From Escherichia coli (GTDB lineage Bacteria > Pseudomonadota > Gammaproteobacteria > Enterobacterales > Enterobacteriaceae): a stretch of DNA of 64,000 nucleotides. The notes under the pieces are model-generated. The model ran no database searches and was not told where the DNA came from. It saw nothing but the letters and a program-made list of their open reading frames with translations. Numbering within the stretch: position 1 is the first letter of the stretch; the number at the start of each line of letters is the position of its first letter. The position numbers and the translations under genes were made by a program. Positions 16,122 through 39,165 of this stretch are shown here, in pieces. The stretch lies in NCBI RefSeq assembly GCF_030384885.1, contig NZ_CP128615.1; one strand, written 5' to 3'.

Positions 16122-16137
16122 AGTTATCCGTTGCCTC

Positions 16138-19815: not shown

Positions 19816-19833
19816 TCGGGAGGCTCCCTGCTC

Positions 19834-21014: not shown

Positions 21015-21023
21015 AAATTCATC

Positions 21024-21950
21024 TCACGATTCGCTATATCCAGGAGCGAGTGCAGCATTGTCAACGCCGTATAGTGCTTCTGGATTTTTAAGTGCTAAAT
21101 GGAACTCTCGCCCATTGCTCTTACAATTCTTTGAACAATCGATATTCCATAAACGCAGTAAATATCCAGCGAACGCAGCTCTTATCTCTACACGCAACCT
21201 ATTGTTTTCCATTGCGTAGTCCATCGATACAGCTTCTGGATGTGCTAGTTTTGGATGAGGTATCAGCTCTAGCTCAACGATTCGGTTCCATTGCTTATCC
21301 CACTGAAGAGTCTCAACTTCGTCGTTAACCTCATCCTCTAACAACTCAACTTCACTTATTCTGGTTAAAACAAAATCCCTAAATTCTCTAAGCTTTCTAT
21401 CGAATGCTCGGACATGCCATCTCAAGCCATTGTCAATCAGGGTATGAGGAACTATTTGCCTGCTCCCATGACCACTCGACAATGAGGTGTACTCAATATT
21501 AATCACAGCGCGCTTATGTATGGCTTCACTAATAGCCGCTACAACTTCCAATTTCGGCTTATTGAGATGGAATGGTGCTTCACAAGCCATAGGTGGCCTG
21601 GCCTTGCCAAGAAAGCCATCACCGAACCCTTGGCTTATCGTCGCAAGAGTTCGAACAACGTCATAATCAAACAACGGCTGGAATGCGCTCGTCTTCAAGT
21701 GCACTCTGCGCTTTTCGTCATACATAACGTTGTTAGGAGCCAACTCTTTGTACCGCGCAAAATCTTGTGTTGCCACAGACGGCGCTACGCTAAATCGCTC
21801 GGTTAAATAACTACGCCCAGCTTCACCTTTAAATAACAAAGTGAAATCAATATGAGCGAGTCGTTCTCTCTGTGCTTGGCTAAGCTCTTCAAGTCCAGTG
21901 TTGTCTTGCACTGTCAGCCTCTCAATCCATCTGGGACAAGCCCTAATCAT
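21024..21950 (-). CDS. brxR: WYL-domain transcriptional regulator BrxR (wHTH-WYL)
   Basis: 308 aa; N-terminal winged-HTH-like segment and WYL-like core (QIVPHTLIDNGLRWHVRAFD); directly upstream of brxA. True start may be an internal Met. Confidence 0.7.
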   Translation of the reverse strand: MIRACPRWIERLTVQDNTGLEELSQAQRERLAHIDFTLLFKGEAGRSYLTERFSVAPSVATQDFARYKELAPNNVMYDEKRRVHLKTSAFQPLFDYDVVRTLATISQGFGDGFLGKARPPMACEAPFHLNKPKLEVVAAISEAIHKRAVINIEYTSLSSGHGSRQIVPHTLIDNGLRWHVRAFDRKLREFRDFVLTRISEVELLEDEVNDEVETLQWDKQWNRIVELELIPHPKLAHPEAVSMDYAMENNRLRVEIRAAFAGYLLRLWNIDCSKNCKSNGREFHLALKNPEALYGVDNAALAPGYSES

Positions 21951-22269
21951 TTAAAACTAGGAAGCCATCGATTGAATGCCATCAAGCAACCTACTTTTTT
22001 TCATTAGGTATCATAGTATCAACAAGTCGTCTTGTTGGCTATAAAAATTGGCTTGACGTTGTTCGAATGTTTCTTTTCTGGCCTTGATAGAAGCTCACGC
22101 TGGAATGCCAACTGACGCAATTCATTCTCTCGAACACGCCTAGCAACTTCTGCCTGGGCTGGTAGCTGATCTTGACCCTCCATCTCCGAACAGCTTTTGT
22201 ATCTTAAGTTAACGATGTCCGCTGCCGCCGGTATTCCCTCGGGGAGTGATATCCCAGCGCGCTGTGCGG

Positions 22270-22545
22270 GTGGCTTCCATTTCCATCAGATGTCCTTCCT
22301 GCTCCGCTACTGAAGGCGTGGTGCGTAACGGCAAAAGCACTGCCGGACATCAGCGCTATCTCTGCTCTCACTGCCGTAAAACATGGCAACTACAGTTCAC
22401 TTACACCGCCTCTCAGCCCGGTACGCACCAGAAAATCATTGATATGGCCATGAATGGCGTTGGATGCCGGGCAACCGCCCGCATTATGGGCGTTGGCCTC
22501 AACACGATTTTACGTCACTTAAAAAACTCAGACCGCAGTCGGTAA
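22270..22545 (+). CDS. insA: IS1 InsA
   Basis: [43 protein letters not shown]...; track ORF 22246 start extends beyond the IS1 fragment and is not used. Confidence 0.85.
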
Positions 22546-22967
22546 CCTCACGCATACAACCGGGCAGTGACGTCATTGTTTGCGCGGAAATGGACGAACA
22601 GTGGGGTTATGTCGGCGCTAAATCACGCCAGCGCTGGTTGTTTTACGCGTATGACAGGATACGGAGGACGGTTGTGGCGCACGTATTCGGTGAACGCACG
22701 TTGTCCACGCTGGAGCGTCTTCTGGGCCTGCTGTCGGCCTTTGAGGTCGTGGTATGGATGACGGATGGCTGGCCGCTTTATGAATCACGCCTGAAGGGAG
22801 AACTGCACGTTATCAGCAAGCGATATAAGCAGCGCATTGAGCGGCATAACCTGAATCTGAGGCAGCATCTGTCAAGGCTGGGCAGGAAGTCACTGTCGTT
22901 CTCAAAATCGGTGGCGCTGCATGACAAAGTCATCGGGCATTATCTGAACATAAAACACTATCAGTAA
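22464..22967 (+). CDS. insB: IS1 InsB (expressed as InsAB' by frameshifting)
   Basis: 167 aa [27 protein letters not shown]... Confidence 0.85.
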
Positions 22968-23174
22968 GTTGGAGTCATTACCTTCTTTGCCGCCGGACAT
23001 TGTCCGGCGCAACACCAAACCGGTCTGGCGGGCTGAGCCAATCCCGCAGGCAAATTCAGCCCTTACCGGATGGCTCAGCCCCCTACTCATTGGAATTGGA
23101 TATTCAACTTTCAGGGGCTACTGCGCCAGACTTCAGTCTTTAAAGTGATTGACTTAGCGCCTGGCACACTCAAT

Positions 23175-23486
23175 TTATTTAGGTAGCGGGCCTAATTGCA
23201 CCCCATCAGGATAATACTTCCAGCCATCGCGAATTTTGACATTTTCATCCCACGGAAGTTTGTATTCGCCATTGGCAAGATCGCGCACCCAGGTCAGGTA
23301 ATTCTCGCGTTCGCCTCCCGGTTTGCCGACATAGCCCCGGCAGCCAAGGTTGAAAATATTGTTTTCCAACGCCCAGTTTTCACGCGCTTTATCCACCAGG
23401 CGCGGGAACAGCTCTGCGGTAACAATTTCCCATGGGTTGCGGTGCCCCTGCTGAATGACGTTACCGTCATAATTGCAGACCGTACC
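23175..23486 (-). pseudogene. C-terminal fragment of an unidentified gene, truncated by IS903
   Basis: Open frame runs from the IS903 boundary (23486) to stop at 23175; no N-terminus. Confidence 0.3.
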
Positions 23487-24543
23487 GGCTTTGTTGAATA
23501 AATCGAACTTTTGCTGAGTTGAAGGATCAGATCACGCATCCTCCCGACAACACAGACCATTCCGTGGCAAAGCAAAAGTTCAGAATCACCAACTGGTCCA
23601 CCTACAACAAAGCTCTCATCAACCGTGGCTCCCTCACTTTCTGGCTGGATGATGGGGCGATTCAGGCCTGGTATGAGTCGGCAACGCCTTCATCACGGGG
23701 AAGGCCCCAGCGCTATTCTGACCTTGCCATCACGACTGTGCTGGTCATTAAACGCGTATTCAGGCTGACCCTGCGCGCTGCGCAGGGCTTTATTGATTCC
23801 ATTTTTACACTGATGAATGTTCCGTTGCGCTGCCCGGATTACAGCTGTGTCAGCAGGCGGGCAAAGTCGGTTAACGTCAGTTTCAAAACGTTCACCCGGG
23901 GTGAAATCGCGCATCTGGTGATTGATTCCACCGGGCTGAAGGTCTTTGGTGAAGGCGAGTGGAAAGTCAAAAAGCATGGCCAGGAACGCCGTCGTATATG
24001 GCGAAAGTTGCATCTGGCAGTTGACAGCAACACACATGAAATCATCTGTGCAGACCTGTCGCTGAACAATGTGACGGACTCAGAAGCCTTCCCGGGTCTT
24101 ATCCGGCAGACTCACAGAAAAATCAGGGCAGCATCGGCAGACGGCGCTTACGACACCCGGCTCTGTCACGATGAACTGCGGCGTAAGAAAATCAGCGCGC
24201 TTATCCCTCCCCGAAAAGGTGCGGGTTACTGGCCCGGTGAATATGCAGACCGTAACCGTGCAGTGGCTAATCAGCGAATGACCGGGAGTAATGCGCGGTG
24301 GAAATGGACAACAGATTACAACCGTCGCTCGATAGCGGAAACGGCGATGTACCGGGTAAAACAGCTGTTCGGGGGTTCACTGACGCTGCGTGACTACGAT
24401 GGTCAGGTTGCGGAGGCTATGGCCCTGGTACGAGCGCTGAACAAAATGACGAAAGCAGGTATGCCTGAAAGCGTGCGTATTGCCTGAAAACACAACCCGC
24501 TACGGGGGAGACTTACCCGAAATCTGATTTATTCAACAAAGCC
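23487..24543 (+). mobile_element. IS903 (IS5 family), intact 1057-bp copy, no target-site duplication
   Basis: Terminal inverted repeats GGCTTTGTTGAATAAATC at both ends; flanking 9-mers differ (gaccgtacc vs agatggaat). Confidence 0.9.
23519..24487 (+). CDS. IS903 transposase
   Basis: 322 aa [45 protein letters not shown]... Confidence 0.9.
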
Positions 24544-24625
24544 AGATGGAATAGCCCCGCTCGGTGATTTGGCGGACAGCTTCTTCCTTAAATTCAGGGG
24601 TAAAACGTGGTGTGCCCATAGACTA
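24544..24625 (-). mobile_element. 82-bp remnant of an IS3-family element (orfA start region)
   Basis: Minus strand encodes MGTPRFTPEFKEEAVRQITERGYSI, near-identical to the orfA start at 3293; cut on both sides by IS903 and the IS407-like element. Confidence 0.5.
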
Positions 24626-25208
24626 TGACCTGCTCCCCGTTGATTAGTACACCCCGATGTTAGTAATGTCTTCATAAGCCACATGAGGACATCCCCATGA
24701 AGAAGCGTTTTTCCGACGAACAGATCATCAGTATTCTCCGCGAAGCCGAAGCTGGGGTACCCGCCCGTGAACTCTGCCGCAAGCATGCCATTTCCGATGC
24801 CACGTTTTACACCTGGCGTAAGAAGTATGGCGGTATGGAGGTGCCTGAAGTTAAGCGCCTGAAGTCGCTTGAGGAAGAGAACGCCAGACTCAAGAAGCTG
24901 CTTGCCGAAGCCATGCTGGATAAAGAGGCGCTTCAGGTGGCTCTTGGGCGAAAGTACTGACGACAGACCAGAAGCGGGAAGCCGTGATGCTGATGTGTGA
25001 TGCGACCGGTCTGTCGCAACGTCGTGCCTGCAGGCTTACAGGTTTGTCCCTGTCGACCTGCCGCTATGAGGCTCACCGTCCGGCTGCTGATGCGCATTTA
25101 TCAGGGCGCATCACTGAGCTGGCACTGGAGCGCAGGCGTTTTGGCTACCGTCGTATTTGGCAATTGCTGCGCCGTGAAGGGCTTCATGTTAATCATAAGC
25201 GCGTGTAG
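24626..25208 (+). mobile_element. IS3-family (IS407-group-like) element, 3'-truncated within orfB
   Basis: Begins TGACCTGCTCCCCGTTGATTAGTACACCCCGATG; orfA 24697-24960 and first 74 codons of orfB (24984-25208) only. Confidence 0.6.
24697..24960 (+). CDS. IS3-family (IS407-group) transposase OrfA
   Basis: MKKRFSDEQIISILREAEAGVPARELCRKHAISDATFYTWRKKYGG... Confidence 0.8.
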   Translation: MKKRFSDEQIISILREAEAGVPARELCRKHAISDATFYTWRKKYGGMEVPEVKRLKSLEEENARLKKLLAEAMLDKEALQVALGRKY

Positions 25209-25457
25209 TGATGCGGACTACGACGTGCGTTTGGTCCAGGACTGCTGCTACGACCCGGATCGGGATGCCCACGAAGCTCTGTTGCGTTCCGGGTTCGGCG
25301 GACGTGTACAGGTCGTGTAATTTTCGGGCCTCGCATGATCGCGGCCATAGCCGCAGGTGGATTGGTGCGAGGCAGGGCCAGTCCAAGTCAGGGTGCGGTC
25401 ATCGCGGCGCCTGCAACTCTCAAAAACCCATCGCCGTAGCGGAGGTCTTGTAATCGC

Positions 25458-26342
25458 ATGTCATTACGCACGCCCGATTTATTGTTCACAGCGATAGCAC
25501 CTGCCATTTGGGGCAGCACCTACATTGTCACCACCCAATACCTGCCGAACTTCTCACCGATGACGGTCGCGATGCTGCGGGCGTTGCCGGCGGGTTTATT
25601 GCTCGTGATGATCGTCCGACAGATTCCAACGGGAATCTGGTGGATGCGCATCTTCATCCTCGGCGCACTTAATATTTCGCTATTCTGGAGCTTGTTGTTT
25701 ATTTCGGTCTACCGCCTGCCGGGCGGGGTCGCGGCGACGGTAGGCGCTGTGCAGCCGCTGATGGTCGTGTTCATCTCTGCCGCTCTGCTAGGTAGCCCGA
25801 TACGATTGATGGCGGTCCTGGGGGCTATTTGCGGAACTGCGGGCGTGGCGCTGTTGGTGTTGACACCAAACGCAGCGCTAGATCCTGTCGGCGTCGCAGC
25901 GGGCCTGGCGGGGGCGGTTTCCATGGCGTTCGGAACCGTGCTGACCCGCAAGTGGCAACCTCCCGTGCCTCTGCTCACCTTTACCGCCTGGCAACTGGCG
26001 GCCGGAGGACTTCTGCTCGTTCCAGTAGCTTTAGTGTTTGATCCGCCAATCCCGATGCCTACAGGAACCAATGTTCTCGGCCTGGCGTGGCTCGGCCTGA
26101 TCGGAGCGGGTTTAACCTACTTCCTTTGGTTCCGGGGGATCTCGCGACTCGAACCTACAGTTGTTTCCTTACTGGGCTTTCTCAGCCCGGGGACCGCCGT
26201 GTTGCTAGGATGGTTGTTCTTGGATCAGACGCTGAGTGCGCTTCAAATCATCGGCGTCCTGCTCGTGATCGGGAGTATCTGGCTGGGCCAACGTTCCAAC
26301 CGCACTCCTAGGGCGCGTATAGCTTGCCGGAAGTCGCCTTGA
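25458..26342 (+). CDS. pecM: EamA/DMT-family transporter PecM-like
   Basis: 294 aa, multiple transmembrane segments; located downstream of tetA as in Tn1721. Confidence 0.8.
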   Translation: MSLRTPDLLFTAIAPAIWGSTYIVTTQYLPNFSPMTVAMLRALPAGLLLVMIVRQIPTGIWWMRIFILGALNISLFWSLLFISVYRLPGGVAATVGAVQPLMVVFISAALLGSPIRLMAVLGAICGTAGVALLVLTPNAALDPVGVAAGLAGAVSMAFGTVLTRKWQPPVPLLTFTAWQLAAGGLLLVPVALVFDPPIPMPTGTNVLGLAWLGLIGAGLTYFLWFRGISRLEPTVVSLLGFLSPGTAVLLGWLFLDQTLSALQIIGVLLVIGSIWLGQRSNRTPRARIACRKSP

Positions 26343-26373
26343 CCCGCATGGCATAGGCCTATCGTTTCCACGA

Positions 26374-27573
26374 TCAGCGATCGGCTCGTTGCCCTGCGCC
26401 GCTCCAAAGCCCGCGACGCAGCGCCGGCAGGCAGAGCAAGTAGAGGGCAGCGCCTGCAATCCATGCCCACCCGTTCCACGTTGTTATAGAAGCCGCATAG
26501 ATCGCCGTGAAGAGGAGGGGTCCGACGATCGAGGTCAGGCTGGTGAGCGCCGCCAGTGAGCCTTGCAGCTGCCCCTGACGTTCCTCATCCACCTGCCTGG
26601 ACAACATTGCTTGCAGCGCCGGCATTCCGATGCCACCCGAAGCAAGCAGGACCATGATCGGGAACGCCATCCATCCCCGTGTCGCGAAGGCAAGCAGGAT
26701 GTAGCCTGTGCCGTCGGCAATCATTCCGAGCATGAGTGCCCGCCTTTCGCCGAGCCGGGCGGCTACAGGGCCGGTGATCATTGCCTGGGCGAGTGAATGC
26801 AGAATGCCAAATGCGGCAAGCGAAATGCCGATCGTGGTCGCGTCCCAGTGAAAGCGATCCTCGCCGAAAATGACCCAAAGCGCGGCCGGCACCTGTCCGA
26901 CAAGTTGCATGATGAAGAAGACCGCCATCAGGGCGGCGACGACGGTCATGCCCCGGGCCCACCGGAACGAAGCGAGCGGGTTGAGAGCCTCCCGGCGTAA
27001 CGGCCGGCGTTCGCCTTTGTGCGACTCCGGCAAAAGGAAACAGCCCGTCAGGAAATTGAGGCCGTTCAAGGCTGCCGCGGCGAAGAACGGAGCGTGGGGG
27101 GAGAAACCGCCCATCAGCCCACCGAGCACAGGTCCCGCGACCATCCCGAACCCGAAACAGGCGCTCATGAAGCCGAAGTGCCGCGCGCGCTCATCGCCAT
27201 CAGTGATATCGGCAATATAAGCGCCGGCTACCGCCCCAGTCGCCCCGGTGATGCCGGCCACGATCCGCCCGATATAGAGAACCCAAAGGAAAGGCGCCGT
27301 CGCCATGATGGCGTAGTCGACAGCAGCGCCGGCCAGCGAGACGAGCAAGACCGGCCGCCGCCCGAAACGATCCGACAGCGCGCCCAGCACAGGTGCGCAG
27401 GCAAATTGCATCAACGCATACAGCGCCAGCAGAATGCCATAGTGGGCGGTGACGTCGTTCGAGTGAACCAGATCGCGCAGGAGGCCCGGCAGCACCGGCA
27501 TAATCAGGCCGATGCCGACAGCGTCGAGCGCGACAGTGCTCAGAATTACGATCAGGGGTCTGTTGGGTTTCAC
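26374..27573 (-). CDS. tetA: Tetracycline efflux MFS transporter TetA, class A
   Basis: VKPNRPLIVILSTVALDAVGIGLIMPVLPGLLRDL...; GTG start at 27573 (399 aa); the track ORF extends 25 codons further upstream. Confidence 0.95.
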   Translation of the reverse strand: MKPNRPLIVILSTVALDAVGIGLIMPVLPGLLRDLVHSNDVTAHYGILLALYALMQFACAPVLGALSDRFGRRPVLLVSLAGAAVDYAIMATAPFLWVLYIGRIVAGITGATGAVAGAYIADITDGDERARHFGFMSACFGFGMVAGPVLGGLMGGFSPHAPFFAAAALNGLNFLTGCFLLPESHKGERRPLRREALNPLASFRWARGMTVVAALMAVFFIMQLVGQVPAALWVIFGEDRFHWDATTIGISLAAFGILHSLAQAMITGPVAARLGERRALMLGMIADGTGYILLAFATRGWMAFPIMVLLASGGIGMPALQAMLSRQVDEERQGQLQGSLAALTSLTSIVGPLLFTAIYAASITTWNGWAWIAGAALYLLCLPALRRGLWSGAGQRADR

Positions 27574-27619
27574 GTCTGGCCTCCGGACCAGCCTCCGCTG
27601 GTCCGATTGAACGCGCGGA

Positions 27620-27672
27620 TTCTTTATCACTGATAAGTTGGTGGACATATTATGTTTATCAGTGATAAAGTG
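27620..27672. promoter_or_regulatory. tetA/tetR divergent promoter with two tet operator palindromes
   Basis: TTTATCACTGATAAG and TTTATCAGTGATAAAG palindromes in the tetA-tetR intergenic region. Confidence 0.6.
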
Positions 27673-27678
27673 TCAAGC

Positions 27679-28329
27679 ATGACAAAGTTGCAGCCGAATA
27701 CAGTGATCCGTGCCGCCCTGGACCTGTTGAACGAGGTCGGCGTAGACGGTCTGACGACACGCAAACTGGCGGAACGGTTGGGGGTTCAGCAGCCGGCGCT
27801 TTACTGGCACTTCAGGAACAAGCGGGCGCTGCTCGACGCACTGGCCGAAGCCATGCTGGCGGAGAATCATACGCATTCGGTGCCGAGAGCCGACGACGAC
27901 TGGCGCTCATTTCTGATCGGGAATGCCCGCAGCTTCAGGCAGGCGCTGCTCGCCTACCGCGATGGCGCGCGCATCCATGCCGGCACGCGACCGGGCGCAC
28001 CGCAGATGGAAACGGCCGACGCGCAGCTTCGCTTCCTCTGCGAGGCGGGTTTTTCGGCCGGGGACGCCGTCAATGCGCTGATGACAATCAGCTACTTCAC
28101 TGTTGGGGCCGTGCTTGAGGAGCAGGCCGGCGACAGCGATGCCGGCGAGCGCGGCGGCACCGTTGAACAGGCTCCGCTCTCGCCGCTGTTGCGGGCCGCG
28201 ATAGACGCCTTCGACGAAGCCGGTCCGGACGCAGCGTTCGAGCAGGGACTCGCGGTGATTGTCGATGGATTGGCGAAAAGGAGGCTCGTTGTCAGGAACG
28301 TTGAAGGACCGAGAAAGGGTGACGATTGA
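27679..28329 (+). CDS. tetR: Tetracycline repressor TetR, class A
   Basis: MTKLQPNTVIRAALDLLNEVGVDGLTTRKLAERLGVQQPALYWHF...; 216 aa from the internal Met. Confidence 0.95.
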   Translation: MTKLQPNTVIRAALDLLNEVGVDGLTTRKLAERLGVQQPALYWHFRNKRALLDALAEAMLAENHTHSVPRADDDWRSFLIGNARSFRQALLAYRDGARIHAGTRPGAPQMETADAQLRFLCEAGFSAGDAVNALMTISYFTVGAVLEEQAGDSDAGERGGTVEQAPLSPLLRAAIDAFDEAGPDAAFEQGLAVIVDGLAKRRLVVRNVEGPRKGDD

Positions 28330-28627
28330 TCAGGACCGCTGCCGGAGCGCAACCCACTCACTACAGCAGAGCCATGTAGACAACATCCCCTCCCCCTTTC
28401 CACCGCGTCAGACGCCCGTAGCAGCCCGCTACGGGCTTTTTCATGCCCTGCCCTAGCGTCCAAGCCTCACGGCCGCGCTCGGCCTCTCTGGCGGCCTTCT
28501 GGCGCTCCTGCTGCGGCGTCCGCTCGTGGGCCGTGGCGCGGGTCCGCGCGCCGGCCTCGTGCGCCTGGCGCTCGCGGGCGAGGTCCAGGGCGGCCGTCTT
28601 CACGTTCTGCCTTGCGCAGATGAGATA

Positions 28628-28665
28628 GGGGAGCCCGCAGAATTCGGAAAAAATCGTACGCTAAG
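28628..28665. repeat. Tn1721 internal 38-bp inverted repeat (end of the Tn1722 core)
   Basis: GGGGAGCCCGCAGAATTCGGAAAAAATCGTACGCTAAG; tnpA stop lies inside it. Confidence 0.8.
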
Positions 28666-31627
28666 GTTTTCCGGGCATCCGTAAGGGCCGAAACTTCCCG
28701 TCTTCCAGTCTGCGGCTCTGCCGCCAGACGTAATCGCCGGTTAGGTTGATGTGCTCCCAGCCCAGCGGCGACAGGAATTGCAGCAGCTCGCCGTCCACCG
28801 GCTTGCCGGCCTCGACCAACCCCTGGGTGGCGCGTTCCAGGTACACCGTGTTCCACAGCACGATAGCCGCCGTCACCAGGTTGAGGCCGCTGGCCCGGTA
28901 GCGCTGCTGCTCGAAGCTCCGATCCCTGATTTCCCCAAGGCGGTTGAAGAACACCGCCCTGGCCAGCGAGTTGCGCGCCTCACCTTTGTTCAGGCCGGCA
29001 TGCACGCGGCGGCGCAGTTCAACACTTTGCAGCCAGTCCAGGATGAACAGCGTGCGCTCGATCCGGCCCAGCTCGCGCAGGGCCACGGCCAGTCCGTTCT
29101 GGCGCGGGTAGCTGCCGAGCTTGCGCAGCATCAGCGAGGCGGTGACGGTGCCCTGCTTGATCGAGCTGGCCAGGCGCAGGATGTCGTCCCAGTGGGCACG
29201 CACGTGCTTGATGTTCAGGGTGCCGCCGATCAGCGGGCGCAACGTCGGGTAGGCTTGCACGCCCTGCGGCACGTACAGCTTGGTTTCGCCGAGGTCGCGG
29301 ATGCGCGGCGCGAAGCGGAAGCCTAGCAGGTGCATCAGGGCAAAGACGTGATCGGTGAAGCCGGCCGTGTCGGTGTAGTGCTCCTCGATCCGCAGGTCGG
29401 ACTCGTGGTACAGCAGGCCGTCGAGCACATAGGTGGAATCGCGGACGCCGACATTCACCACGCGGGTGCTGAACGGCGCGTACTGGTCGGAGATATGGGT
29501 ATAGAACAGCCGTCCCGGCTCGCTACCGTACTTCGGGTTGACGTGCCCGGTGCTCTCGCCCCGGCCACCCGCGCGGAAGCGCTGGCCATCGGAGGATGAG
29601 GTCGTGCCGTCGCCCCAGTGGGCGGCAAAGGCGTGGCGATACTGGTGGTTGACCAGCTCGGCCAAGGCCGCCGAATAGGTTTCGTCGCGGATGTGCCAGG
29701 CTTGCAGCCAGGACAGCTTGGCGTAGGTCAGGCCGGGGCTCGACTCGGCCATCTTGGTCAGCCCGAGGTTGATCGCATCACCGAGGATTGCGGACAGCAG
29801 CAACGTCCTGTCTTTGGCCTCGGCCCCGTCCTTCAAGTGGGTGAAGTGGCGGCTGAAGCCCGTCCAGTCGTCCACGTCCATCAGCAGTTCGGTGATCTTG
29901 ATGCGCGGCAGTAACTGGCTGGTTTGGTCGATCAGCGCCTGCGCCCGATCCGGCACCGCCGCATCCAGCGGGGTGATTTTCAGCCCTGACTCGGTGAGGA
30001 TGGCATCGGGCAGCTCGTTGTCCTTGGCCAGGCGGGTGACGGTGGCCAACTGCTCGTCCAGCAGCTGCAAACGCTCTTCCAGGTACTGGTCGCTGTTCGG
30101 GTTGATCGCCAGGGGCAGGGCCTGCTCGCGCTTGAGTGCGGCGAACTTCTCGGCCGGCAGCAGGTAGTCGTCGAAGTCGCGGAACTGCCGCGAGCCCTTG
30201 ACCCAGATGTCGCCGGAGCGCAGGGCGTTCTTCAGCTCGGACAGGGCGCAGATTTCGTAGAATTTCCGGTCGAGGCCTTCCGGGGTGATCACCAGCGGCT
30301 TCCAGCGCGGCTTGATGAAGGCCGTGGGTGCATCGGCCGGCACCTTGCGCAGGTTGTCGGCGTTCATCTCACGCAGGGTCTGCACGGCTGCCAGCACGCC
30401 TTGCGCGGCCGGCGCGGCGCGCAGTTCCAGCACCTCCAGCAAGGCCGGCGTGTAACGGCGCAGGGTGGCGAAGTTCTCGCCGACCAGGTGCAGGTGGTCG
30501 AAGCCTTCCGGCCGGGCCAGCAGCTCGGCCTCGCTGACGCTCTCGGTGAACTCGTCCCAGGGAATCACCGCCTCGATGGCGGCATAGGGGTCGCTGCCGC
30601 TTTCCTTCGCTTCCAGCAGCGCCTGGCCGATCCTGGAGTACAGGCGCACCTTGTCGTTGATCGCCTTGCCCTGCTTCTGGAACTGCTGCTGATGCTTGTG
30701 CTTCGCGCCGCTGAACAGCTTGACCAGGATGCGGTCATGCAGATCGACCAGCTCATCGATCACGGTCGCGGTGCTCTCCAGCACCACGGCGGCCAGGGTC
30801 GCGTAGCGGCGCTGCGGCTCGAACTTACCGAGGTCTTTGGGCGTCATCTGCCCACCCTCGCGGGCCAGCTTGAGCAGGCGGTTCTGGTGGATGTGCCGGC
30901 CCAGGCCTTCGGGCAAGTCCACCAACTGAAATGTCTTCAGCCGCTCGATGTGTTCCAGCATGTGCCGAGAGTTGGGTTTCAGCGGTGCCTGGCGCAGCCA
31001 GGTCAACCAGGTGATGCTGCTGCCGGCCTTGAGCTTCAACAGCTCGTCCAGCTTGGCCCGATGCGAGTCCGTGAGTGGTTCGACCAGGGCGCGGTAGACC
31101 CGCCGATTGGCTCGCGCAATGGCTTCCGAGCAGGCCCGGTCAATCACGCTCAGCGCCGGCAGGATGCGTCGTTTCTGCCGTAGGCTCTCCAGGGCCTGAC
31201 CGGCCAGCAGCAAGCCTTTGTCGGTCTGCTGGGCCAGCTCGGTTAGCTCGCGCACCAGGGCGCGGAAGTCGGACAGGCCGAACGGGGCCAGTTGCAGGTA
31301 GGTGCGCAGTTCCTGGGCATGCTCGCGACGGGTCACGTCGCGCTCGCCGTACTTTGCCCAGCTCGCCGGCTCGGCCTGGACTTGCTTCGCCACCCACAGG
31401 ATGACCGGCTCGGGCAGCTCGCTGTCGGTTCCCAGCGCGTAACCGGGGTAGCGCAGCAGGCAGAGCTGCACGGCGAAGCCGAGGCGGTTGGCGTCGCCGC
31501 GTCGCTGGCGGATCAGCGACAGGTCGGAGTCGTTGAAGGTGTAGTAGCGGATCAGGTCATCCTGGCTTTCCGGCAGCGCAAGCAGGGTGTCCCGCTCCGT
31601 GGCCGAGAGGATCAAGCGACGCGGCAT
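28661..31627 (-). CDS. tnpA: Tn21-subgroup Tn3-family transposase TnpA (Tn1721)
   Basis: 988 aa [31 protein letters not shown]... ending ...LTGDYVWRQ... Confidence 0.9.
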
Positions 31628-31630
31628 GTG

Positions 31631-32191
31631 TCAGTCGTCCGTGCGGAGGTACTGGTAGAGGGTTTCCCGGCTGATGTTGAACTCGCGGGCAAGCTGCGCC
31701 TTGGGCTCGCCGGCCGTCGCTCGCTGCCGCAGGGTAGCAGCCTGCTCATCGGACAGGGCTTTCTTGCGGCCCCGGTACGCGCCACGCTGCTTGGCCAAGG
31801 CGATGCCCTCACGCTGCCGCTCGCGGATCAGGGCGCGCTCGAACTCAGCGAAGGCCCCCATCACCGACAGCATCAGGTTGGCCATCGGCGAGTCCTCGCC
31901 AGTGAACACCAGGCCCTCCTTCAGGAACTCGATGCGCACGCCGCGCTGAGTCAGCTTCTGTACCAAGCGACGCAGGTCATCGAGGTTGCGGGCCAGCCGA
32001 TCCATGCTGTGCACCACCACTGTATCGCCTTCGCGGACGAAGCTCAGCAGCGCTTCGAGCTGGGGGCGCTGGGTGTCCTTGCCCGATGCCTTGTCGGTGA
32101 ACACCTTGCTCACCTGGGTTTGTTCCAGCTGGCGTTCCGGGTTCTGGTCAAAGCTGCTGACCCGGACGTAGCCGATGCGGTGCCCCTGCAC
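31631..32191 (-). CDS. tnpR: Serine resolvase TnpR (Tn1721)
   Basis: 186 aa MQGHRIGYVRVSSFDQNPERQLEQ... with catalytic serine region and C-terminal HTH. Confidence 0.9.
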   Translation of the reverse strand: MQGHRIGYVRVSSFDQNPERQLEQTQVSKVFTDKASGKDTQRPQLEALLSFVREGDTVVVHSMDRLARNLDDLRRLVQKLTQRGVRIEFLKEGLVFTGEDSPMANLMLSVMGAFAEFERALIRERQREGIALAKQRGAYRGRKKALSDEQAATLRQRATAGEPKAQLAREFNISRETLYQYLRTDD

Positions 32192-32499
32192 GATGTCTCC
32201 TTGGTTGAAGGCGGCTTAAGTGCACTTTCTGTTCCGTTGTGCCTCAAAGCCCATTTCTGTCAGGCTGAAATCTATAACCTTCGCGGGCATGTGTCAAAAA
32301 ATGGGAAAGCAGACTCTATTCTGACGAAGCGGCGCGCCCTGCCTGACATCAAGTTAGGGTATAGCCTAGATTGACATGCGCGATGCAACCCTTAACTTGC
32401 TTGCACCTATCGTTTCCATGCTAGCTTTATCGTAACGCTCAAGAAATTGGGCTTAATGCCGAAAACAATAAAATAAAACAGCCAACCCTTGAGGTTCTT

Positions 32500-34077
32500 A
32501 TGCGCCAGAATTTACCAGTGACGGGTCGAAACTTAGAACTCCCAAAAGATGCCAATATTCTTTCGACTACCTCCCCTCAAAGCCATATCACGTACGTTAA
32601 TCCTGACTTCATTAAAATCAGTGGTTTCACTGAGGAAGAACTATTAGGCCAGCCTCACAACATCGTAAGACACCCAGATATGCCGCCTGCTGCATTTGAG
32701 CATATGTGGAGTACATTAAAATCTGGCCGCTCATGGATGGGGCTAGTAAAAAATCGCTGTAAAAATGGCGACCACTATTGGGTAAGTGCTTATGTAACGC
32801 CAATAGCTAAGAATGGTTCGATTGTTGAATACCAGTCTGTAAGGACCAAGCCTGAACCTGAGCAGGTTTTGGCTGCGGAAAAATTATATGCTCAATTGAG
32901 AAGCGGGAAGGCCGCGAGGCCGAAATTGGCTGCTAGCTTTTCCGTGAAAATACTCTTGCTCATATGGGGTAGTATTATATCAAGCGCAATGGCTGCCGGC
33001 ATGCTTACTGATACATCAATAAGCAGCTTATTGTTAGCCACTTTAATGTCAGGAAGCTTAAGCTCTGTTAGTGTTTTGGCTATTCTCTCTCCTCTTGGAA
33101 GACTGGTTGAAAGAGCCAGGAATATTTCCAATAACCCATTAAGTCAATCCCTCTACACTGGGCGCACCGATGAGTTTGGCCAAATAGAGTTTGCTTTACG
33201 AATGATGCAAGCTGAAACAGGCGCCATAGTAGGTCGCATAGGTGATGCATCAAATCGGCTTAGCGAACACACCCGAGGCCTACTAAAGGATATTGAGTCA
33301 AGCAATGTACTTACAGTTGAGCAGCAGGCAGAGACAGATCAAATAGCAACGGCAGTAAACCAAATGGTGGCAAGCATTCAAGAGGTTGCGAGCAATGCAC
33401 AGCATGCTGCAGATGCGGCCGGAAGAGCAGACACTGAGACGGCATCTGGCCAGCGTCTGGTAGCCCACACAAGCCAGTCAATCACTGCCCTTGAAGGTGA
33501 AATTAGGCAAGCCACTCAGGTTATTCATGAGCTTGAAGGTCAAAGTAACGAGATATCAAAAGTTCTTGACGTTATACGAGGGATCGCCGAGCAAACGAAT
33601 TTGTTGGCACTCAACGCAGCAATTGAGGCCGCGCGTGCTGGTGAGCAGGGGCGTGGTTTTGCTGTTGTCGCCGATGAGGTTCGCAGTCTTGCTGCTCGCA
33701 CACAGCAATCGACAACGGATATTCAAAGCATGATCAGCGCTCTACAAGAGCGAGCGCAATCCGCTGTTACAGTCATGGAGCAAAGTAGTCGGCAAGCGCA
33801 CACGAGTGTAGCTCACGCAGAGGAAGCAGCTACAGCTCTTGATGGAATTGGCCAACGCGTTAACGAAATTACCGACATGAACGCGCAAATAGCGACTGCG
33901 GTCGAGCAGCAGGGAGCAGTAAGTGAAGACATAAACCGCAGTATTATCAATATACGCGATGCTGCTGATACCAATGTACAGACCGGGCAGAATAATTTGC
34001 AAAGTGCGAAATCTGTCGCTCAGTTAACTAGCGCTCTGAGCGAACTGGCAAAACAGTTTTGGGAAAAACGAGGATAA
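32500..34077 (+). CDS. Methyl-accepting chemotaxis-like protein (Tn1721 orfI / mcp)
   Basis: 525 aa with PAS-like N-terminus, two hydrophobic segments and a C-terminal MCP signalling domain ([30 protein letters not shown]). Confidence 0.8.
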
Positions 34078-34228
34078 CGCTTTTCAGTATCTCGACAGGG
34101 ATAACTTACTTTACCATCGGTTATCCCTTTTAGCCGCACAAATTTTAGCCATGGCTTTTCAGGAAGTCAGGGCTATCAGAATGGCCTTAGAAAGCCTAGT
34201 CAAAGAGCTGTCACGAGAACACCGTTAG

Positions 34229-34266
34229 CTTAGCGTACGATTTTTTCCGAATTCTGCGGTTCCCCC
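34229..34266. repeat. Tn1721 outer 38-bp terminal inverted repeat
   Basis: Reverse complement of GGGGGAACCGCAGAATTCGGAAAAAATCGTACGCTAAG. Confidence 0.8.
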
Positions 34267-34300
34267 TTAATTTCAGTATCTGTTATTACAGTTGGGTATC

Positions 34301-34372
34301 GGTGATGCTGCCAACTTACTGATTTAGTGTATGATGGTGTTTTTGAGGTGCTCCAGTGGCTTCTGTTTCTAT
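34301..34372 (+). mobile_element. IS1 left-end fragment (first 72 bp)
   Basis: GGTGATGCTGCCAACTTACTGATTTAGTGTATGATGGTG... then abuts a Tn3-family inverted repeat. Confidence 0.85.
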
Positions 34373-34806
34373 GGGGTCAGTTTGGATATCGAAAATTATT
34401 GTACGTTAAGGTCGTTTTTTGACCTTTCTACTTTAGCTGGCCTCAGCCGACGAAACTTACCGGAGGCCGGTATTCTGTTGTTTTTCCAGATGTAATCGCC
34501 TGTCAGATTGATATGCTCCCAGCCTAACGGCGACAAATGTGACAGCAGTTGCTCGTTGATCTTCACCCCTTTACGCTTCAGGGCATCGACCGCTCTTTCC
34601 ATATACACTGTATTCCACAGCGAGATAGTTGCTGTCAGCAGCGTCAGTCCACTGGCGCGGTAGCTCTGATTTTCCGGTTTACGATCCCTGATTTCACCCA
34701 GACGGTGCAGGAATACCGCGCGCGCTAGAGAGAGCTCCCATCGCTGCGCGACGGGCCCCAACCGGAGAACCAAGTTAGTTACAGCATTCAGATGAAAATT
34801 CATCAT
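34373..34806 (-). pseudogene. Tn3-family transposon end: 38-bp IR (34373-34410) plus C-terminal fragment of TnpA
   Basis: IR GGGGTCAGTTTGGATATCGAAAATTATTGTACGTTAAG; ORF fragment ...[17 protein letters not shown]...[17 protein letters not shown] matches TnpA C-termini. Confidence 0.7.
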
Positions 34807-35250
34807 AAAACCGGCGCCGGTTTGCCAGCCAGGAGCCCCTCCCCACCACTGAAAAGCGCCGCCGCCCCCGGCCGAAGGCCGGGAGTAGTGTCGCTTTTAA
34901 TGATGGGTGTTGTAACTACTCTTCGTCATCTCTGTGAGTAGTGTCGCGGTAAGTTCTGGGATACACGCTCGTAAGCGGCCCTAACGGCCCGCTAACGCGG
35001 AGATACGCCCCGACTGCGGCTGTCGCCTTGCCGGGACCACTCCGACCGCGTACAGAGGCATCTGAGCCGTTTTTAGCGGGTATAGCTTTGCAGGGAAGGG
35101 GGTGGGTGAGGCAGAACCTGTCAAAACAGCAGCCGGCTGCGCCGGGCGACGGCGCCATTTACCCGCAGTACTCCATTCAACTTCAGCTGGCGCCTCCATG
35201 CCGCTGACGCGGCATTATCTATACTTTAAGTCTGGCCACTGGAGGTAACC

Positions 35251-35335
35251 ATGTGCGGACGTTTTTCTCAGTCTATGACGCGGGAAGAGTATCTTTCTCT
35301 CCTCGCCAATGAAGCCGATCGAAATATTGCCTACG
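35251..35335 (+). pseudogene. N-terminal fragment of an SRAP (YedK/HMCES-like) peptidase gene, truncated by IS903
   Basis: MCGRFSQSMTREEYLSLLANEADRNIAY; the MCGRF N-terminus is the SRAP hallmark; cut at the IS903 end. Confidence 0.5.
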
Positions 35336-35463
35336 GGCTTTGTTGAATAAATCAGATTTCGGGTAAGTCTCCCCCGTAGCGGGTTGTGTTTTCAGGCAAT
35401 ACGCACGCTTTCAGGCATACCTGCTTTCGTCATTTTGTTCAGCGCTCGTACCAGGGCCATAGC
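35336..35463 (-). mobile_element. IS903 right-end segment (part of an IS903 copy split by Tn5393)
   Basis: 128 bp identical to the last 128 bp of IS903 in reverse orientation; continues at 42169-43102. Confidence 0.85.
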
Positions 35464-35496
35464 GGGGTCGTTTGCGGGAGGGGGCGGAATCCTACG

Positions 35497-38382
35497 CTAA
35501 GGCTTTGGCCAGCGATATTCTCCGGTGAGATTGATGTGTTCCCATCCGAGCGGCGAAACATGGGCCAAGAGATCGGGCGATAGCAGCTTTCCATCGCGTT
35601 TCTGGTTTGCAACGACCTCGCCGAGCTTCATGGTGTTCCAGAAGATGATGATGGCGGCGAGCAGATTCATGCCGGCGATGCGGTAATGCTGGCCTTCGGC
35701 GGAACGGTCGCGGATTTCACCGCGGCGGTGGAAGCTGATTGCCCGCTTCAGCGCATGATGAGCTTCGCCTTTGTTGAGCCCGATCTGGGCACGCCGTTGG
35801 AGTTCGGCATCCAGAATCCAGTCGATCATGAACAGGGTGCGCTCGACGCGACCGACTTCCCGCAGGGCTGTCGCGAGCTCGTTCTGCCGCGGATAGGAGG
35901 CGAGTTTCCGCAGAATCTGGCTTGGCGCGACGGTCCCGGCAGCAATGGTGGCGGCGATGCGCAGGATGTCGGGCCAATTGCGCTCGATCATGGCTTGGTT
36001 GACCTTTCCGCCGATCAACGCTCGCAGGTGCGCCGGGGCGGCCGACGGATTGAACGCGTAGAGCCGTTTGGATGGCAGGTCGCGGATGCGCGGAGCGAAC
36101 CGGTAGCCGAGAATGGCACATGCGGCAAAGACGTGATCGGTGAAGCCGCCCGTGTCGGTGAACTGCTCGCGGATATGGCGTCCAGCATCGTTCATCAGCA
36201 GGCCATCGAGGATGTAAGGCGCTTCGCTTGCCGTTGCAGGAATCACCTGGGTTGCGAACGGCGCATATTGGTCGGAGACGTGGCTATAGGCTTTCAGGCC
36301 CGGGGTATTGCCATATTTCGCGTTGACCAGGTTCATGGCCTCACCTTGCTCTGTAGCGACGAAGAACTGTCCGTCGCTCGAAGCCGACGTGCCCATGCCC
36401 CAGAACCGGGCCATGGGTAACGCTGCCTGTGCCTCGACCACCATGGCCAGCGCCCGGTCATAGGCTTCGCCCTCGACATGCCACCGTCCAATGCGGATCA
36501 ATTCCCAGAAGGTGTGGGTGTTTGTCGCATCCGCCATTTTGCGCAAGCCGAGGTTGATCCCTTCCGCCAAGATAACGTTCATTAGCCCGATCCGGTCAGC
36601 GCAGGGTGCTCCTGTGCGCAGATGGGTGAACGCTTCGGTGAAGCCGGTCGCCGCATCCACCTCCAGCAGGAGATCGGTGATGCGCGTGGGCGGGATCTGC
36701 TTGTAGAGATCGAGCACCAGATCTTCGGCGCCTGTCGGCGCGGCGGCTTCGAGTTTCTCGATATGCAGAACGCCGTTTTCAATCGACCCGCCCGGGATCG
36801 TGCCTGCGCGAGCGGCACGGCCAAGCTCGCGCAACCGCATGTCGAGGCGAGCTTGCCGGTCTGCCAGCCATTCCTCCGGCCGCAATGGCACAGCGAGACG
36901 ACCGCCTTCCGCGATGGATTGTGCCGGAACGAGTGCGTGTTTCAGATCGCCATAGCGCCGGGACCTAGTAAGCCAGACATCTCCGGAGCGGAACGCATCG
37001 CGCAGATGGAACAGCACCGCGATCTCCCATAGGCGAGCGTCGCCAGCCCTCTGGGCCCGAAGGTGGCGATGCCATTTCGAGCTGGGCCGCAAGAAGCTGG
37101 TCATCGCGGCATCGTTCAAACCGGTACGAAGGGCCGTCACCGCTTCCAGAAGCGGCAGTGCAACGGGCGCAGCTCGCAGATCGAGCAGGCGCAACATGCG
37201 TGGAGCGTATCGGCGGAAGCGGTGATAACCGTCGAGCACATGATTGAGCGGATCGTCGGCCATGGTGGCGGTCAGCCTGGTTGCCATTGCAACAAGGGTT
37301 TTTAAGCCGTCCCACCCTGACCCACTCGCGATGACATCGCCCAGCGGCTGGCCATCATCCTGTGCATCGACCAGGGCGCCCCCGATCTCGGCGAAGGATT
37401 TCAGGGTGTCACGCACCACCCCCGCTTCGTCTGCGACCTTTGCATGGCAAATACGCTCCGAAGCACGGTAGAGACGGCCGACGATCCGGTCGTGGGTTTC
37501 GACCACTGCGTCGGCCAACATCGCCTGCCATTCCGAGACGCAAACAGCCAAGATCGCAAGCCGCCTGTCCTCCGGGAGATCGCGCATGCCGTCGGCATAA
37601 TACCGTTCACCCTGCCTGCGCAGACGAGTCACCCGATGGGCAGGAACGCCGGCAAGCAGATCCTCGGGGAGATCGATGCGTTGCAGATATTCGAGCCGGT
37701 CGAGCAGCCGGTTGGCCGACGAAGAGTTCGAGCCAGGCTCGAACTGGCGCAGCCACACAAAACGGGTCACCCGATCATCAGCCGTCTCCTCGAGCAATGC
37801 CAGCAACTGTTCTCGGATCGACATAGGCAGCCGACTGGCGATCCTCGTCTCGATGCGTCGCTCGGCATCGACGAGAGCCGCGGCACAAAGCCGCTCGATC
37901 GTGGATGTCGCGGGAAGGACAGTGCGGGTGCGTCGGCACTCGGCTACGAAGCGACGGGCGATATCCTCGTTCGACACCGCCATCTCGGCTTCTCGGAACA
38001 ACCATTCCTTCAGCTCGCTCGCACCACGTCCGGAGAAGGTGCGGAAGCCGTAGAGCCCCCGTAACTCGGCAAGATGCTCGTGCCGTGTTTCCTCGCGGGC
38101 AGCATAGTCTACGAGATCGTCGGCACCCAGGCCAAGCTGCGCTCCGATAAATTCGATGACCTCTGCAGGGATCAGTTCGCCTGGAGCCAGCACCCGGCCG
38201 GGATAGCGCAGGACACACAATTGCAGGGCGAAGCCGAACCTGTTGTGAGCGCGCCGACGCAGCCTGATATGCCCAAGGTCTTCATCACTCAGCGTATAGT
38301 GCTTGAGCAAATCCGTCTGTGAAGTCGGCAAGCGCAACAGCGCGTCTTTCTGCCGATCGGTTAGAGTGACGCGACGCGGCAT
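35497..38382 (-). CDS. tnpA: Tn3-family transposase TnpA (Tn5393)
   Basis: 961 aa MPRRVTLTDRQKDALLRLPTSQTDLLKHYTLSDEDLG... Confidence 0.9.
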   Translation of the reverse strand: MPRRVTLTDRQKDALLRLPTSQTDLLKHYTLSDEDLGHIRLRRRAHNRFGFALQLCVLRYPGRVLAPGELIPAEVIEFIGAQLGLGADDLVDYAAREETRHEHLAELRGLYGFRTFSGRGASELKEWLFREAEMAVSNEDIARRFVAECRRTRTVLPATSTIERLCAAALVDAERRIETRIASRLPMSIREQLLALLEETADDRVTRFVWLRQFEPGSNSSSANRLLDRLEYLQRIDLPEDLLAGVPAHRVTRLRRQGERYYADGMRDLPEDRRLAILAVCVSEWQAMLADAVVETHDRIVGRLYRASERICHAKVADEAGVVRDTLKSFAEIGGALVDAQDDGQPLGDVIASGSGWDGLKTLVAMATRLTATMADDPLNHVLDGYHRFRRYAPRMLRLLDLRAAPVALPLLEAVTALRTGLNDAAMTSFLRPSSKWHRHLRAQRAGDARLWEIAVLFHLRDAFRSGDVWLTRSRRYGDLKHALVPAQSIAEGGRLAVPLRPEEWLADRQARLDMRLRELGRAARAGTIPGGSIENGVLHIEKLEAAAPTGAEDLVLDLYKQIPPTRITDLLLEVDAATGFTEAFTHLRTGAPCADRIGLMNVILAEGINLGLRKMADATNTHTFWELIRIGRWHVEGEAYDRALAMVVEAQAALPMARFWGMGTSASSDGQFFVATEQGEAMNLVNAKYGNTPGLKAYSHVSDQYAPFATQVIPATASEAPYILDGLLMNDAGRHIREQFTDTGGFTDHVFAACAILGYRFAPRIRDLPSKRLYAFNPSAAPAHLRALIGGKVNQAMIERNWPDILRIAATIAAGTVAPSQILRKLASYPRQNELATALREVGRVERTLFMIDWILDAELQRRAQIGLNKGEAHHALKRAISFHRRGEIRDRSAEGQHYRIAGMNLLAAIIIFWNTMKLGEVVANQKRDGKLLSPDLLAHVSPLGWEHINLTGEYRWPKP

Positions 38383-39122: not shown

Positions 39123-39165
39123 TGGACTTGCCTCGGTTTCGTTCCGGTCTTTTTGAGAGCATTAT

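Follow-up and report, generated by a model that had tools for sequence, protein, structure and literature searches.

Organization of the region

The window, that is, the whole stretch of 64,000 nucleotides analysed here, is IncR-type multiresistance plasmid DNA, in which the resistance region includes Tn1721 with tet(A) and Tn5393 with strAB, adjoined by a BREX-1 defence operon. IS1 positions are numbered throughout after the window's own complete 768-bp IS1 (46596-47363, minus strand). The elements of the region are as follows:

3131-3192: IS903 fragment, 62 bp
22167-22269, minus strand: last 103 bp of an IS3-family insertion sequence, comprising the final ~23 codons of the transposase (by translation) and the right end of the element
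22270-22982, plus strand: IS1 fragment, positions 56-768, in gapless alignment with the complete copy at 46596-47363
22983-23486: remnant DNA between the IS1 fragment and IS903 copy A, part of which is a partial formamidase (amiF) pseudogene (PGAP, CP123330.1)
23487-24543, plus strand: IS903 copy A, intact, 1057 bp; its transposase carries an IS903 family annotation in CP123330.1
24626-25206, plus strand: 5' part of ISSen4 (IS3-like), ~580 bp, including the frameshift element, joined to an internal point of Tn1721
25207-34266, minus strand: truncated Tn1721, with the tet(A)/tetR module and the Tn1722 module (tnpA, tnpR, mcp)
34267-34300, plus strand: 34 bp of original target DNA, the 3' flank of a nuclease-domain gene, from which it runs on in three records
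34301-34372, plus strand: IS1 stub, positions 1-72, IS1A-type, with an intact IRL (34301-34323)
34373-34728, minus strand: Tn3-family remnant ("ΔTnEc1", PMC9412624), with an intact 38-bp terminal IR and ~320 bp of the tnpA 3' end
35336-35463 and 42169-43102 (35336-43102 overall), minus strand: IS903 copy B, complete but interrupted by Tn5393
35464-42168: Tn5393 (tnpA, tnpR, IS1133, strA, strB), with a clean 5-bp duplication, ATAGC
44125-45181, minus strand: IS903 copy C, intact, 1057 bp
46596-47363, minus strand: complete IS1, 768 bp, annotated as IS1X3 in relatives and lying within "region N" of PMC9412624

The long IS1 fragment and its IS3-family neighbour

The first-pass annotation had described the IS1 copy at 22270-22982 as lacking its first 54 bp; these coordinates hold, while the alignment puts the missing stretch at 55 bp. 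The fragment has lost the IRL and the promoter region and retains intact insA/insB' and the IRR (22960-22982). The open reading frame at 22246-22545, which contains insA, matches both InsA Pfam domains, its InsA translation is free of stops, and in CP123330.1, where the stretch is 100% identical, PGAP has annotated it as an intact IS1 transposase with a programmed frameshift (WP_227443165.1). As a complete IS1 measures about 768 bp and carries imperfect inverted repeats of about 23 bp at both ends, the missing IRL makes this piece a remnant. No 8-10-bp target duplication was found around it, and none is possible, because its left flank is the interior of an IS3-family element.

Many Klebsiella plasmids carry an annotated, intact IS3-family transposase gene whose 3' end matches the 103-bp tail in that flank at 100% identity, and the partner of IS1 positions 55-59 at the joint is an internal point of this gene. 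Here the intact IS3-family copy has ...AACCAC followed by CCGCACAGC, against ...AAGCCAC in the IS1 reverse complement, so that CCAC/GTGG is common to both; the first four bases of the fragment (GTGG) thus fit either side, and the sequence is unambiguously IS1 only from position 60. The anatomy of the joint points to an illegitimate deletion through this 4-bp microhomology. A divergent IS1 copy would have lain next to or within the IS3-family element, and one such deletion across GTGG would have removed the first 55-59 bp of IS1 together with most of its neighbour. The junction is read directly; the order of events around it is the one we infer and is no longer recoverable.

The same junction occurs in at least 969 plasmids of PLSDB, mostly Klebsiella IncFIB(K). 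Hundreds of Klebsiella IncFIB(K) plasmids carry the same 103-bp tail and the joint at IS1 position 56 with 99.5-100% identity, and in both of those examined the clpK/hsp20 heat-resistance locus adjoins the block. Their left flank consists of IS66-type remnants, whereas in the window's lineage the block adjoins the BREX-1 operon; to the right of the IS1 tip they carry an APC permease and a formamidase gene. Between the Klebsiella and window IS1 fragments there are four SNPs, all of them in the right half of IS1, a weak hint of recombination inside it.

Closer relatives extend the comparison. E. coli plasmid p1658/97 (NC_004998.1), one of the plasmids counted above as having this junction, matches window positions 14120-24543 at 99.6%, shows no difference in either the IS3-family tail or the IS1 fragment (positions 56-768), and shares the amiF remnant, in the same context for 22983-23486, as well as IS903 copy A. 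The block of BREX-1, IS1 fragment and IS903 is also present in the IncR plasmids CP024857.1 and MT136605.1. Downstream of IS903 copy A the plasmids differ: IS100 and ars genes follow in p1658/97, a complete ISSen4 and then ATPase and nuclease genes in CP024857.1, and the truncated ISSen4 fused to the truncated Tn1721 in the window.

The IS1 stub and its Tn3-family neighbour

The alignment agrees with the earlier description of 34301-34372 as a 72-bp IS1 left end fused to a Tn3-family inverted repeat. The stub agrees at 72/72 positions with IS1A-type sequence, and likewise with the IS1 copies annotated in p8025 (as IS1B) and pPSJ-14_2. It is not a complete IS1, having neither transposase genes nor IRR and stopping at position 72 against the 38-bp terminal IR of the Tn3-family element (GGGGTCAGTTTGGATATCGAAAATTATTGTACGTTAAG, 34373-34410), which begins with GGGG. 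A near-identical IR terminates an annotated Tn3-family tnpA in another record. The open reading frame at 34396-34806 (minus strand) matches Pfam DDE_Tnp_Tn3 (PF01526) over profile positions 310-389 of 389 (E = 1.8e-25), and the remnant codes for the C-terminal end of a transposase only, reading toward the IR. Its identity to annotated Tn3-family transposase genes is ~90%, over query positions 1-356 only; similarity ends after ~356 bp, and a second IR, a resolvase or res site and a 5-bp target duplication were not found for this remnant.

The first base of the intact IR directly abuts IS1 position 72, which argues that a Tn3-family transposon inserted into IS1, the transposon being the probable active element and IS1 only its target. 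Judging from this anatomy, an IS1A-type copy would have inserted 55 bp downstream of the nuclease-domain gene, a TnEc1-like Tn3-family transposon would then have entered that copy after position 72, and later deletions would have taken the remaining IS1 and all but ~356 bp of the transposon. Since our searches found no record of a reciprocal product, in which IS1 from about position 68 would follow the other Tn3-family IR, it is the intact IR tip by itself that carries this order of insertion and then deletion.

The stretch spanning the stub junction is covered by at least 91 PLSDB records; in three, including pKp_SB62390_1, the sequence was compared and agrees at every base, and the complete plasmids examined among these records are IncR-type. 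The locus has already been published as "locus B" of IncR plasmids, described for pST1023 as ΔTnEc1-ΔIS1-68 bp-IS903B and traced to a plasmid like pKqq_18A069_2, the nuclease-domain gene being called estP (PMC9412624). Locus B and the window have in common the 72-bp IS1 stub, the Tn3-family terminal repeat fused to it and, ahead of both, the 3' flank of the nuclease gene. It differs in lacking IS903B at 68 bp from the stub and the nuclease gene itself, which is absent from the window, the flank being left with 34 bp through the insertion of Tn1721, whose IR reaches 34266. The sequence of pKqq_18A069_2 is identical to the window from the nuclease-gene flank through the first 32 bp of the IR, and beyond these 32 bp the interior of its Tn3-family remnant is unlike the window's. 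In MT136605.1 the stub-locus sequence is identical to the window and IS903B is present at 67-68 bp.

IS903 copies

Copies A and C have the 1057-bp length and 18-bp terminal inverted repeats of IS903 (IS5 family), with the ends GGCTTTGTTGAATAAATC. The first-pass annotation had counted three intact copies, but only A and C are intact, as B is split by Tn5393; in pKp_SB62390_1 copy B is uninterrupted. The reported lack of 9-bp target duplications was borne out: no direct repeat lies beside A (flanks GACCGTACC / AGATGGAAT), B or C (flanks GCCCCGCGC / GTCTGTGTT), and pairing the flanks across copies A, B and C gave no 9-bp match. MT136605.1, by contrast, carries an additional IS903 bordered on both sides by a perfect 9-bp duplication, GTCTCCCGT. 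The copies in the window have probably lost their duplications by serving as substrates for recombination or deletion, or by replacement of their flanks.

DNA between the two IS1 remnants

The variable DNA between the two pieces is accounted for by Tn1721/Tn1722 insertion, recombination within Tn1721/Tn1722, and a deletion internal to two other elements. The truncated ISSen4, which contains an Rfam RF00383 match at 24927-25044, is complete in CP024857.1. Tn1721 has lost its tet-side end and keeps an internal IR at ~28633-28670 and a terminal 38-bp IR at 34229-34266. Relatives (MT136605.1, CP024857.1 and pKp_SB62390_1) suggest an ancestral IncR layout in which the two scars bracketed partial amiF, IS903, ISSen4, an AAA-ATPase gene, the nuclease gene and 55 bp. 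In the window's lineage, Tn1722/Tn1721 would have inserted 34 bp from the IS1 stub, and CP024857.1, where both Tn1722 ends flank the same target TTAAT(T), supports a Tn1722 insertion at this site. The left side may then have been replaced by a Tn1721 copy that already carried the fusion to truncated ISSen4. Homologous recombination in the 5.6-kb Tn1722 module common to both is the simplest route, and the replacement would have removed the ATPase and nuclease genes. This remodelling is later than the two IS1 junctions.

Authenticity of the junctions

Collapsed or mis-joined repeats at insertion sequence or transposon boundaries might have created the fragments or their order, and assembly errors of this kind had been named as what would overturn the earlier reading. 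We regard such an artefact as unlikely. Both IS1 junctions recur in many independent records, and every junction was matched at or near 100% in independent complete plasmids: the IS3-family tail with the IS1 fragment; the IS1 fragment with the amiF remnant and IS903; ISSen4 with Tn1721; and the Tn1721 IR, 34 bp, IS1 stub and Tn3-family IR. As each is reproduced independently, the IS1 fragments themselves are not artefacts, and doubt is limited to the long-range linkage via Tn1721. On this point, the exact colinear stretch 20000-37000 occurs in no single PLSDB or E. coli RefSeq record, which is why the recombination step proposed above is phrased conditionally. Two records suffice to build the arrangement, CP123330.1 as far as 34266 and CP024857.1 from 32258 onward, and Tn1721 is the only place where they overlap. 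CP123330.1 shows 100% identity across window positions 20000-34266 and departs from the window precisely at the tip of the Tn1721 IR, which also speaks for the replacement of the left side. An assembly join through the repeated Tn1721 could still be the source of the window's long-range linkage.

Agents of the rearrangements

The two IS1 pieces are, very probably, inert scars of unrelated IS1 copies, each damaged by an agent other than IS1. Both are old and widespread among sequenced resistance plasmids, and they represent ordinary plasmid mosaicism that has been described before. It had been proposed from the first-pass annotation that the rearrangements were IS1-mediated, in which case adjacent deletions, inversions or cointegrate resolution by IS1 transposase would account both for the truncations and for the reshuffling of the DNA in between. 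Adjacent deletions are a known effect of IS1, one plasmid here holds three IS1-derived sequences, and the complete IS1X3 (46596-47363) shows no 9-bp duplication at its flanks. However, a joint newly made by IS1 retains one of its tips (position 1 or 768), whereas the two breaks here are internal to IS1 (position 72 and positions 55-59), their partners being the intact tip of a Tn3-family transposon and, via microhomology, the interior of an IS3-family gene. Moreover, at least 91 plasmids share the one joint and at least 969 the other, each in fixed and identical form, which speaks against a recent origin of either in the window plasmid. For the two truncations the IS1-mediated reading is thus largely refuted, and as an account of the whole region it is highly improbable; in all likelihood, nothing here requires IS1 transposase activity. 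A point favourable to IS1 is that the right flank of the long fragment switches, between the BREX and Klebsiella contexts, exactly from the IS1 tip, and some event did use or cross that tip.

A truncated insertion sequence alone does not implicate that same element as the agent of a rearrangement. The two scar junctions are stable lineage markers, which can be used for tracing the ancestry of IncR and IncFIB(K) plasmids and can anchor comparisons of resistance regions (Tn1721 tet(A), Tn5393 strAB and the neighbouring BREX-1 operon). Beyond such housekeeping, their significance is small, and neither points to a new mechanism.

A further role for IS1 can be imagined in which the IRR of the long fragment (22960-22982) and the IRL of the stub (34301-34323) bound a plasmid-sized "inside-out" IS1 transposon, although we consider this very doubtful. 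Transposase could come from the intact InsAB' of the long fragment, or from IS1X3 in trans. Such a transposon would carry the whole replicon minus the 11.3-kb block between the tips. If real, it could explain the fusion of this IncR backbone with other replicons, or exchange of the intervening block. As they lie in the window, the two pieces resemble IS1-flanked composite transposons, such as IS1-sta1-IS1 of pCFS3246-1, in that IS1-derived sequences bracket passenger DNA; Tn9-type elements are IS1-flanked composite transposons as well. Unlike these, which have two complete IS1 copies with functional outer tips, the window has one piece without IRL and another that is a 72-bp stub without IRR, and the remaining tips point toward the passenger block rather than outward.

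Under the preferred reading, the two pieces derive from different IS1 copies. They overlap over IS1 positions 56-72, where the stub reads GTGGCTTCTGTTTCTAT and the long fragment GTGGCTTCCATTTCCAT; the earlier statement that the overlap sequences differ is correct (3 mismatches), and the overlap is 17 bp long instead of the 18 bp given. Identity of the long fragment is 92% with IS1A and 95% with the full copy, whereas all 72 bp of the stub are 100% IS1A-type. Because 3 of the 17 overlapping bases differ and the isoforms differ, the pieces are remnants of two elements, as the first-pass annotation had already stated, and their separate distributions among plasmids agree. That a single IS1 was split by a foreign insertion or inversion, the overlap being a duplication, is scarcely credible: both pieces lie on the plus strand and, around the circular plasmid, would follow in the order 1-72, backbone, 56-768, but the mismatches and isoforms speak against it, a 17-bp duplication matches none of the transposons involved (5 bp for the Tn3 family, 9 bp for IS903), and the stub and long-fragment junctions are distributed differently among plasmids.

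Truncation of the IS1 remnants

The two IS1 remnants of this IncR-type multiresistance plasmid, which the first-pass annotation had read as a sign of IS1-mediated rearrangement, were broken by insertion of a Tn3-family transposon into IS1 in one case and by a microhomology deletion with an IS3-family element in the other, and IS1 is not the maker of the rearrangements. Three IS1-derived sequences are present in the window.

IS1-derived sequences in the window
22270-22982, + strand: long fragment, corresponding to positions 56-768 of the complete IS1X3 copy in a gapless alignment
34301-34372, + strand: stub, corresponding to IS1 positions 1-72
46596-47363, - strand: complete IS1 of 768 bp, IS1X3 by annotation in related plasmids

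The stub is identical (72/72) to IS1A-type sequence and to annotated IS1 copies of other plasmids, while the long fragment, which has lost the left inverted repeat but retains an intact InsA and the coding sequence of a frameshifted transposase, shares 92% identity with IS1A and 95% with the IS1X3 copy. The long fragment had been described as lacking its first 54 bp; the loss of the left end is real, and the gapless alignment sets the missing length at 55 bp. Similarly, the two pieces do overlap and differ in sequence, over 17 bp (IS1 positions 56-72) rather than 18, reading GTGGCTTCTGTTTCTAT in the stub and GTGGCTTCCATTTCCAT in the long fragment. Because this 17-bp overlap holds three mismatches, the core observation of non-complementary pieces and the conclusion that they derive from different IS1 copies are correct.

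At 34373, the stub abuts GGGGTCAGTTTGGATATCGAAAATTATTGTACGTTAAG, a complete 38-bp Tn3-family terminal inverted repeat (IR). Behind the IR, an ORF at 34396-34806 (- strand) aligns to the final 80 positions of the Pfam domain DDE_Tnp_Tn3 (E = 1.8e-25), and the likeness to Tn3-family elements stops about 356 bp into the remnant. A transposon tip that is intact and abuts an internal position of IS1 signals insertion of the transposon into IS1, not IS1 activity, and the stub break was thus made by the Tn3-family transposon. Left of the stub, 34 bp (34267-34300) correspond to the 3' flank that a nuclease-domain gene has in related plasmids; a query consisting of this flank, the stub and the IR is covered to at least 80% by no fewer than 91 PLSDB records. 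The structure has been published as IncR "locus B", comprising ΔTnEc1 (the Tn3-family remnant), ΔIS1, a 68-bp fragment and IS903B, for which an origin from a pKqq_18A069_2-like plasmid was proposed (PMC9412624); the locus B sequence was confirmed in pKqq_18A069_2. A search of PLSDB with an artificial query, in which the reverse-complemented IR was followed by IS1 from position 68, yielded no true junction representing the reciprocal product of the insertion. Nine high-coverage records were rejected as candidates, each consisting of two separate pieces merged by the search tool; in one of them, a TnEc1-like IR lies about 170 bp away from a complete IS1.

To its left, the long fragment adjoins a 103-bp segment of an IS3-family element on the opposite strand, made up of the coding sequence for the C-terminal transposase tail and the element's end. 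The segment matches, at 100% identity, the 3' terminus of intact IS3-family copies annotated in many Klebsiella plasmids. Immediately ahead of it, an intact copy has ...AACCAC, and the reverse-complemented IS1 has ...AAGCCAC at the joint. The shared CCAC/GTGG places the joint inside a 4-bp microhomology, and its position within both elements marks it as the product of illegitimate deletion, not of cutting by a transposase. The long-fragment break is therefore a microhomology-mediated deletion involving the IS3-family element. This microhomology also accounts for the apparent start of the fragment right at the insA GTG start codon; a meaning for this start was rejected as coincidence, GTGG being present also in the IS3-family partner. 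The joint is common to at least 969 PLSDB plasmids, mostly from Klebsiella, and in the Klebsiella examples examined, which are IncFIB(K) plasmids, it adjoins clpK/hsp20. In nine records, among them p1658/97 and IncR plasmids, the joint comes together with the BREX-side left flank seen in the window.

Both IS1 scars are thus old and widespread, one of them being explicitly described in the literature, and they represent ordinary, already documented plasmid mosaicism. The surviving IS1 tips might still serve as substrates for transposase supplied in trans, a residual possibility that we consider unlikely.

DNA between the IS1 remnants

The region was annotated from CP123330.1, a 100% identical record.

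Order of features from the left flank of the long fragment to 34266
First: BrxR gene (WYL-domain protein) of the BREX-1 operon
Second: IS3-family tail and IS1 long fragment
Third: partial amiF pseudogene
Fourth: IS903 copy A
Fifth: truncated ISSen4
Sixth: Tn1721 without its tet-side end
Seventh: Tn1721 terminal repeat, ending at 34266

An older layout, consisting of IS903, ISSen4, an AAA-ATPase gene, a nuclease gene, 55 bp and the IS1 stub, is found in the relatives MT136605.1, CP024857.1 and pKp_SB62390_1. In CP024857.1, both ends of a 5.6-kb Tn1722 module abut the same target, TTAAT(T), beside the stub, indicating a genuine transposition at this site. The Tn1722 insertion has lost its original left flank in the window, where a Tn1721 tet module already fused to the truncated ISSen4 stands instead; this left part is shared by CP123330.1, whose sequence departs from the window precisely at the Tn1721 tip. 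The simplest account of this replacement would be homologous recombination within the shared Tn1722 module, by which the ATPase and nuclease genes would have been lost. Later reshaping of the plasmid involved Tn1721/Tn1722 and other elements.

The joint between truncated ISSen4 and truncated Tn1721 (25206/25207) is internal to both elements, lying on the Tn1721 side inside a cysteine-hydrolase pseudogene; CP123330.1 also carries this second joint left by an illegitimate deletion.

None of the PLSDB or E. coli RefSeq records has the arrangement of 20000-37000 from end to end; it looks like a hybrid that is CP123330.1-like up to 34266 and CP024857.1-like from 32258, with overlap only within Tn1721. 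The long-range arrangement could accordingly, with low probability, be an assembly join through a repeated Tn1721, although every individual junction is independently corroborated in other records. Many plasmids seemed colinear with 22270-34372; this was rejected, as pairwise BLAST showed merged IS1 and Tn1721 pieces; in these plasmids, the IS1 copies are complete and lie in different surroundings. Across 21900-36000, an Rfam scan detected no structured RNA beyond one IS3-type frameshift element.

IS903 copies and Tn5393

IS903-related features in the window
3131-3192: IS903 fragment, 62 bp
23487-24543: IS903 copy A, intact, 1057 bp
35336-35463 and 42169-43102: IS903 copy B, split by Tn5393
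35464-42168: Tn5393 inside copy B, 6705 bp, with IS1133 and strA-strB and a clean 5-bp duplication, ATAGC
44125-45181: IS903 copy C, intact, 1057 bp

Three intact IS903 copies without 9-bp target duplications had been reported. Inspection of the flanks bore out the absence of duplications at A, B and C; only A and C are intact, the third being interrupted by Tn5393, and its equivalent in pKp_SB62390_1 is uninterrupted. No signature of inversion or deletion between copies was found among all flank combinations. An extra IS903 of MT136605.1, missing from the window, has a perfect duplication, GTCTCCCGT. A 15-16 bp flank shared by A and B, suggested by a repeat tool, was rejected as an effect of extension tolerance (9/15 matches). 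The 62-bp fragment and the outer flank of copy B share about 10 bp with one indel, GAC(A)TGAATG (3121-3192 vs 43041-43111), which may reflect an IS903 target preference or an old recombination.

Other features of the window

A complete BREX-1 defence operon (about 3975-21950, - strand), identified by near-identity to annotated records, lies directly left of the IS1 long fragment and comprises brxR/WYL, brxA, brxB, brxC, a DUF262 gene, pglX, pglZ and brxL. The DUF262 gene, positioned between brxC and pglX, is reminiscent of the combination of BREX with type IV restriction described for pEFER.

The complete IS1X3 (46596-47363) has no 9-bp target duplication, its flanks being CGCCTGCCG and AACCAGTTC, and adjoins a truncated IncN replicon remnant. 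If IS1 made any deletion in this plasmid, this site is the likelier place. Two iteron arrays (45525-46356 and 53662-54161) were identified: the first, with about 22 copies of a 37-bp unit, represents the IncN remnant, "region N" (PMC9412624), and the second, with about 13 copies of a 36-bp unit, corresponds to the repB iterons of IncR. In the interval from IS903 copy B to copy C, clusters of AAACTACAGAT-like 11-bp direct repeats (43420-43603) adjoin the position of stbA in annotated relatives and are probably binding repeats of an stb partition/stability locus.

An unannotated 607-bp segment (34729-35335) shows 80-92% identity across thousands of Klebsiella plasmids, and its final 85 bp (35251-35335) code for MCGRFSQS..., an N-terminus of SRAP/YedK-like type, the gene being cut off by IS903 copy B. 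The idea that the 64-kb window makes more than one full turn of a smaller circular plasmid was rejected, the only repeat found being a diverged 518-bp direct repeat (2252-2768 and 58420-58933; 89.8% identity), whose units, close to the vapBC end of the IncR backbone, are separated by 56 kb.
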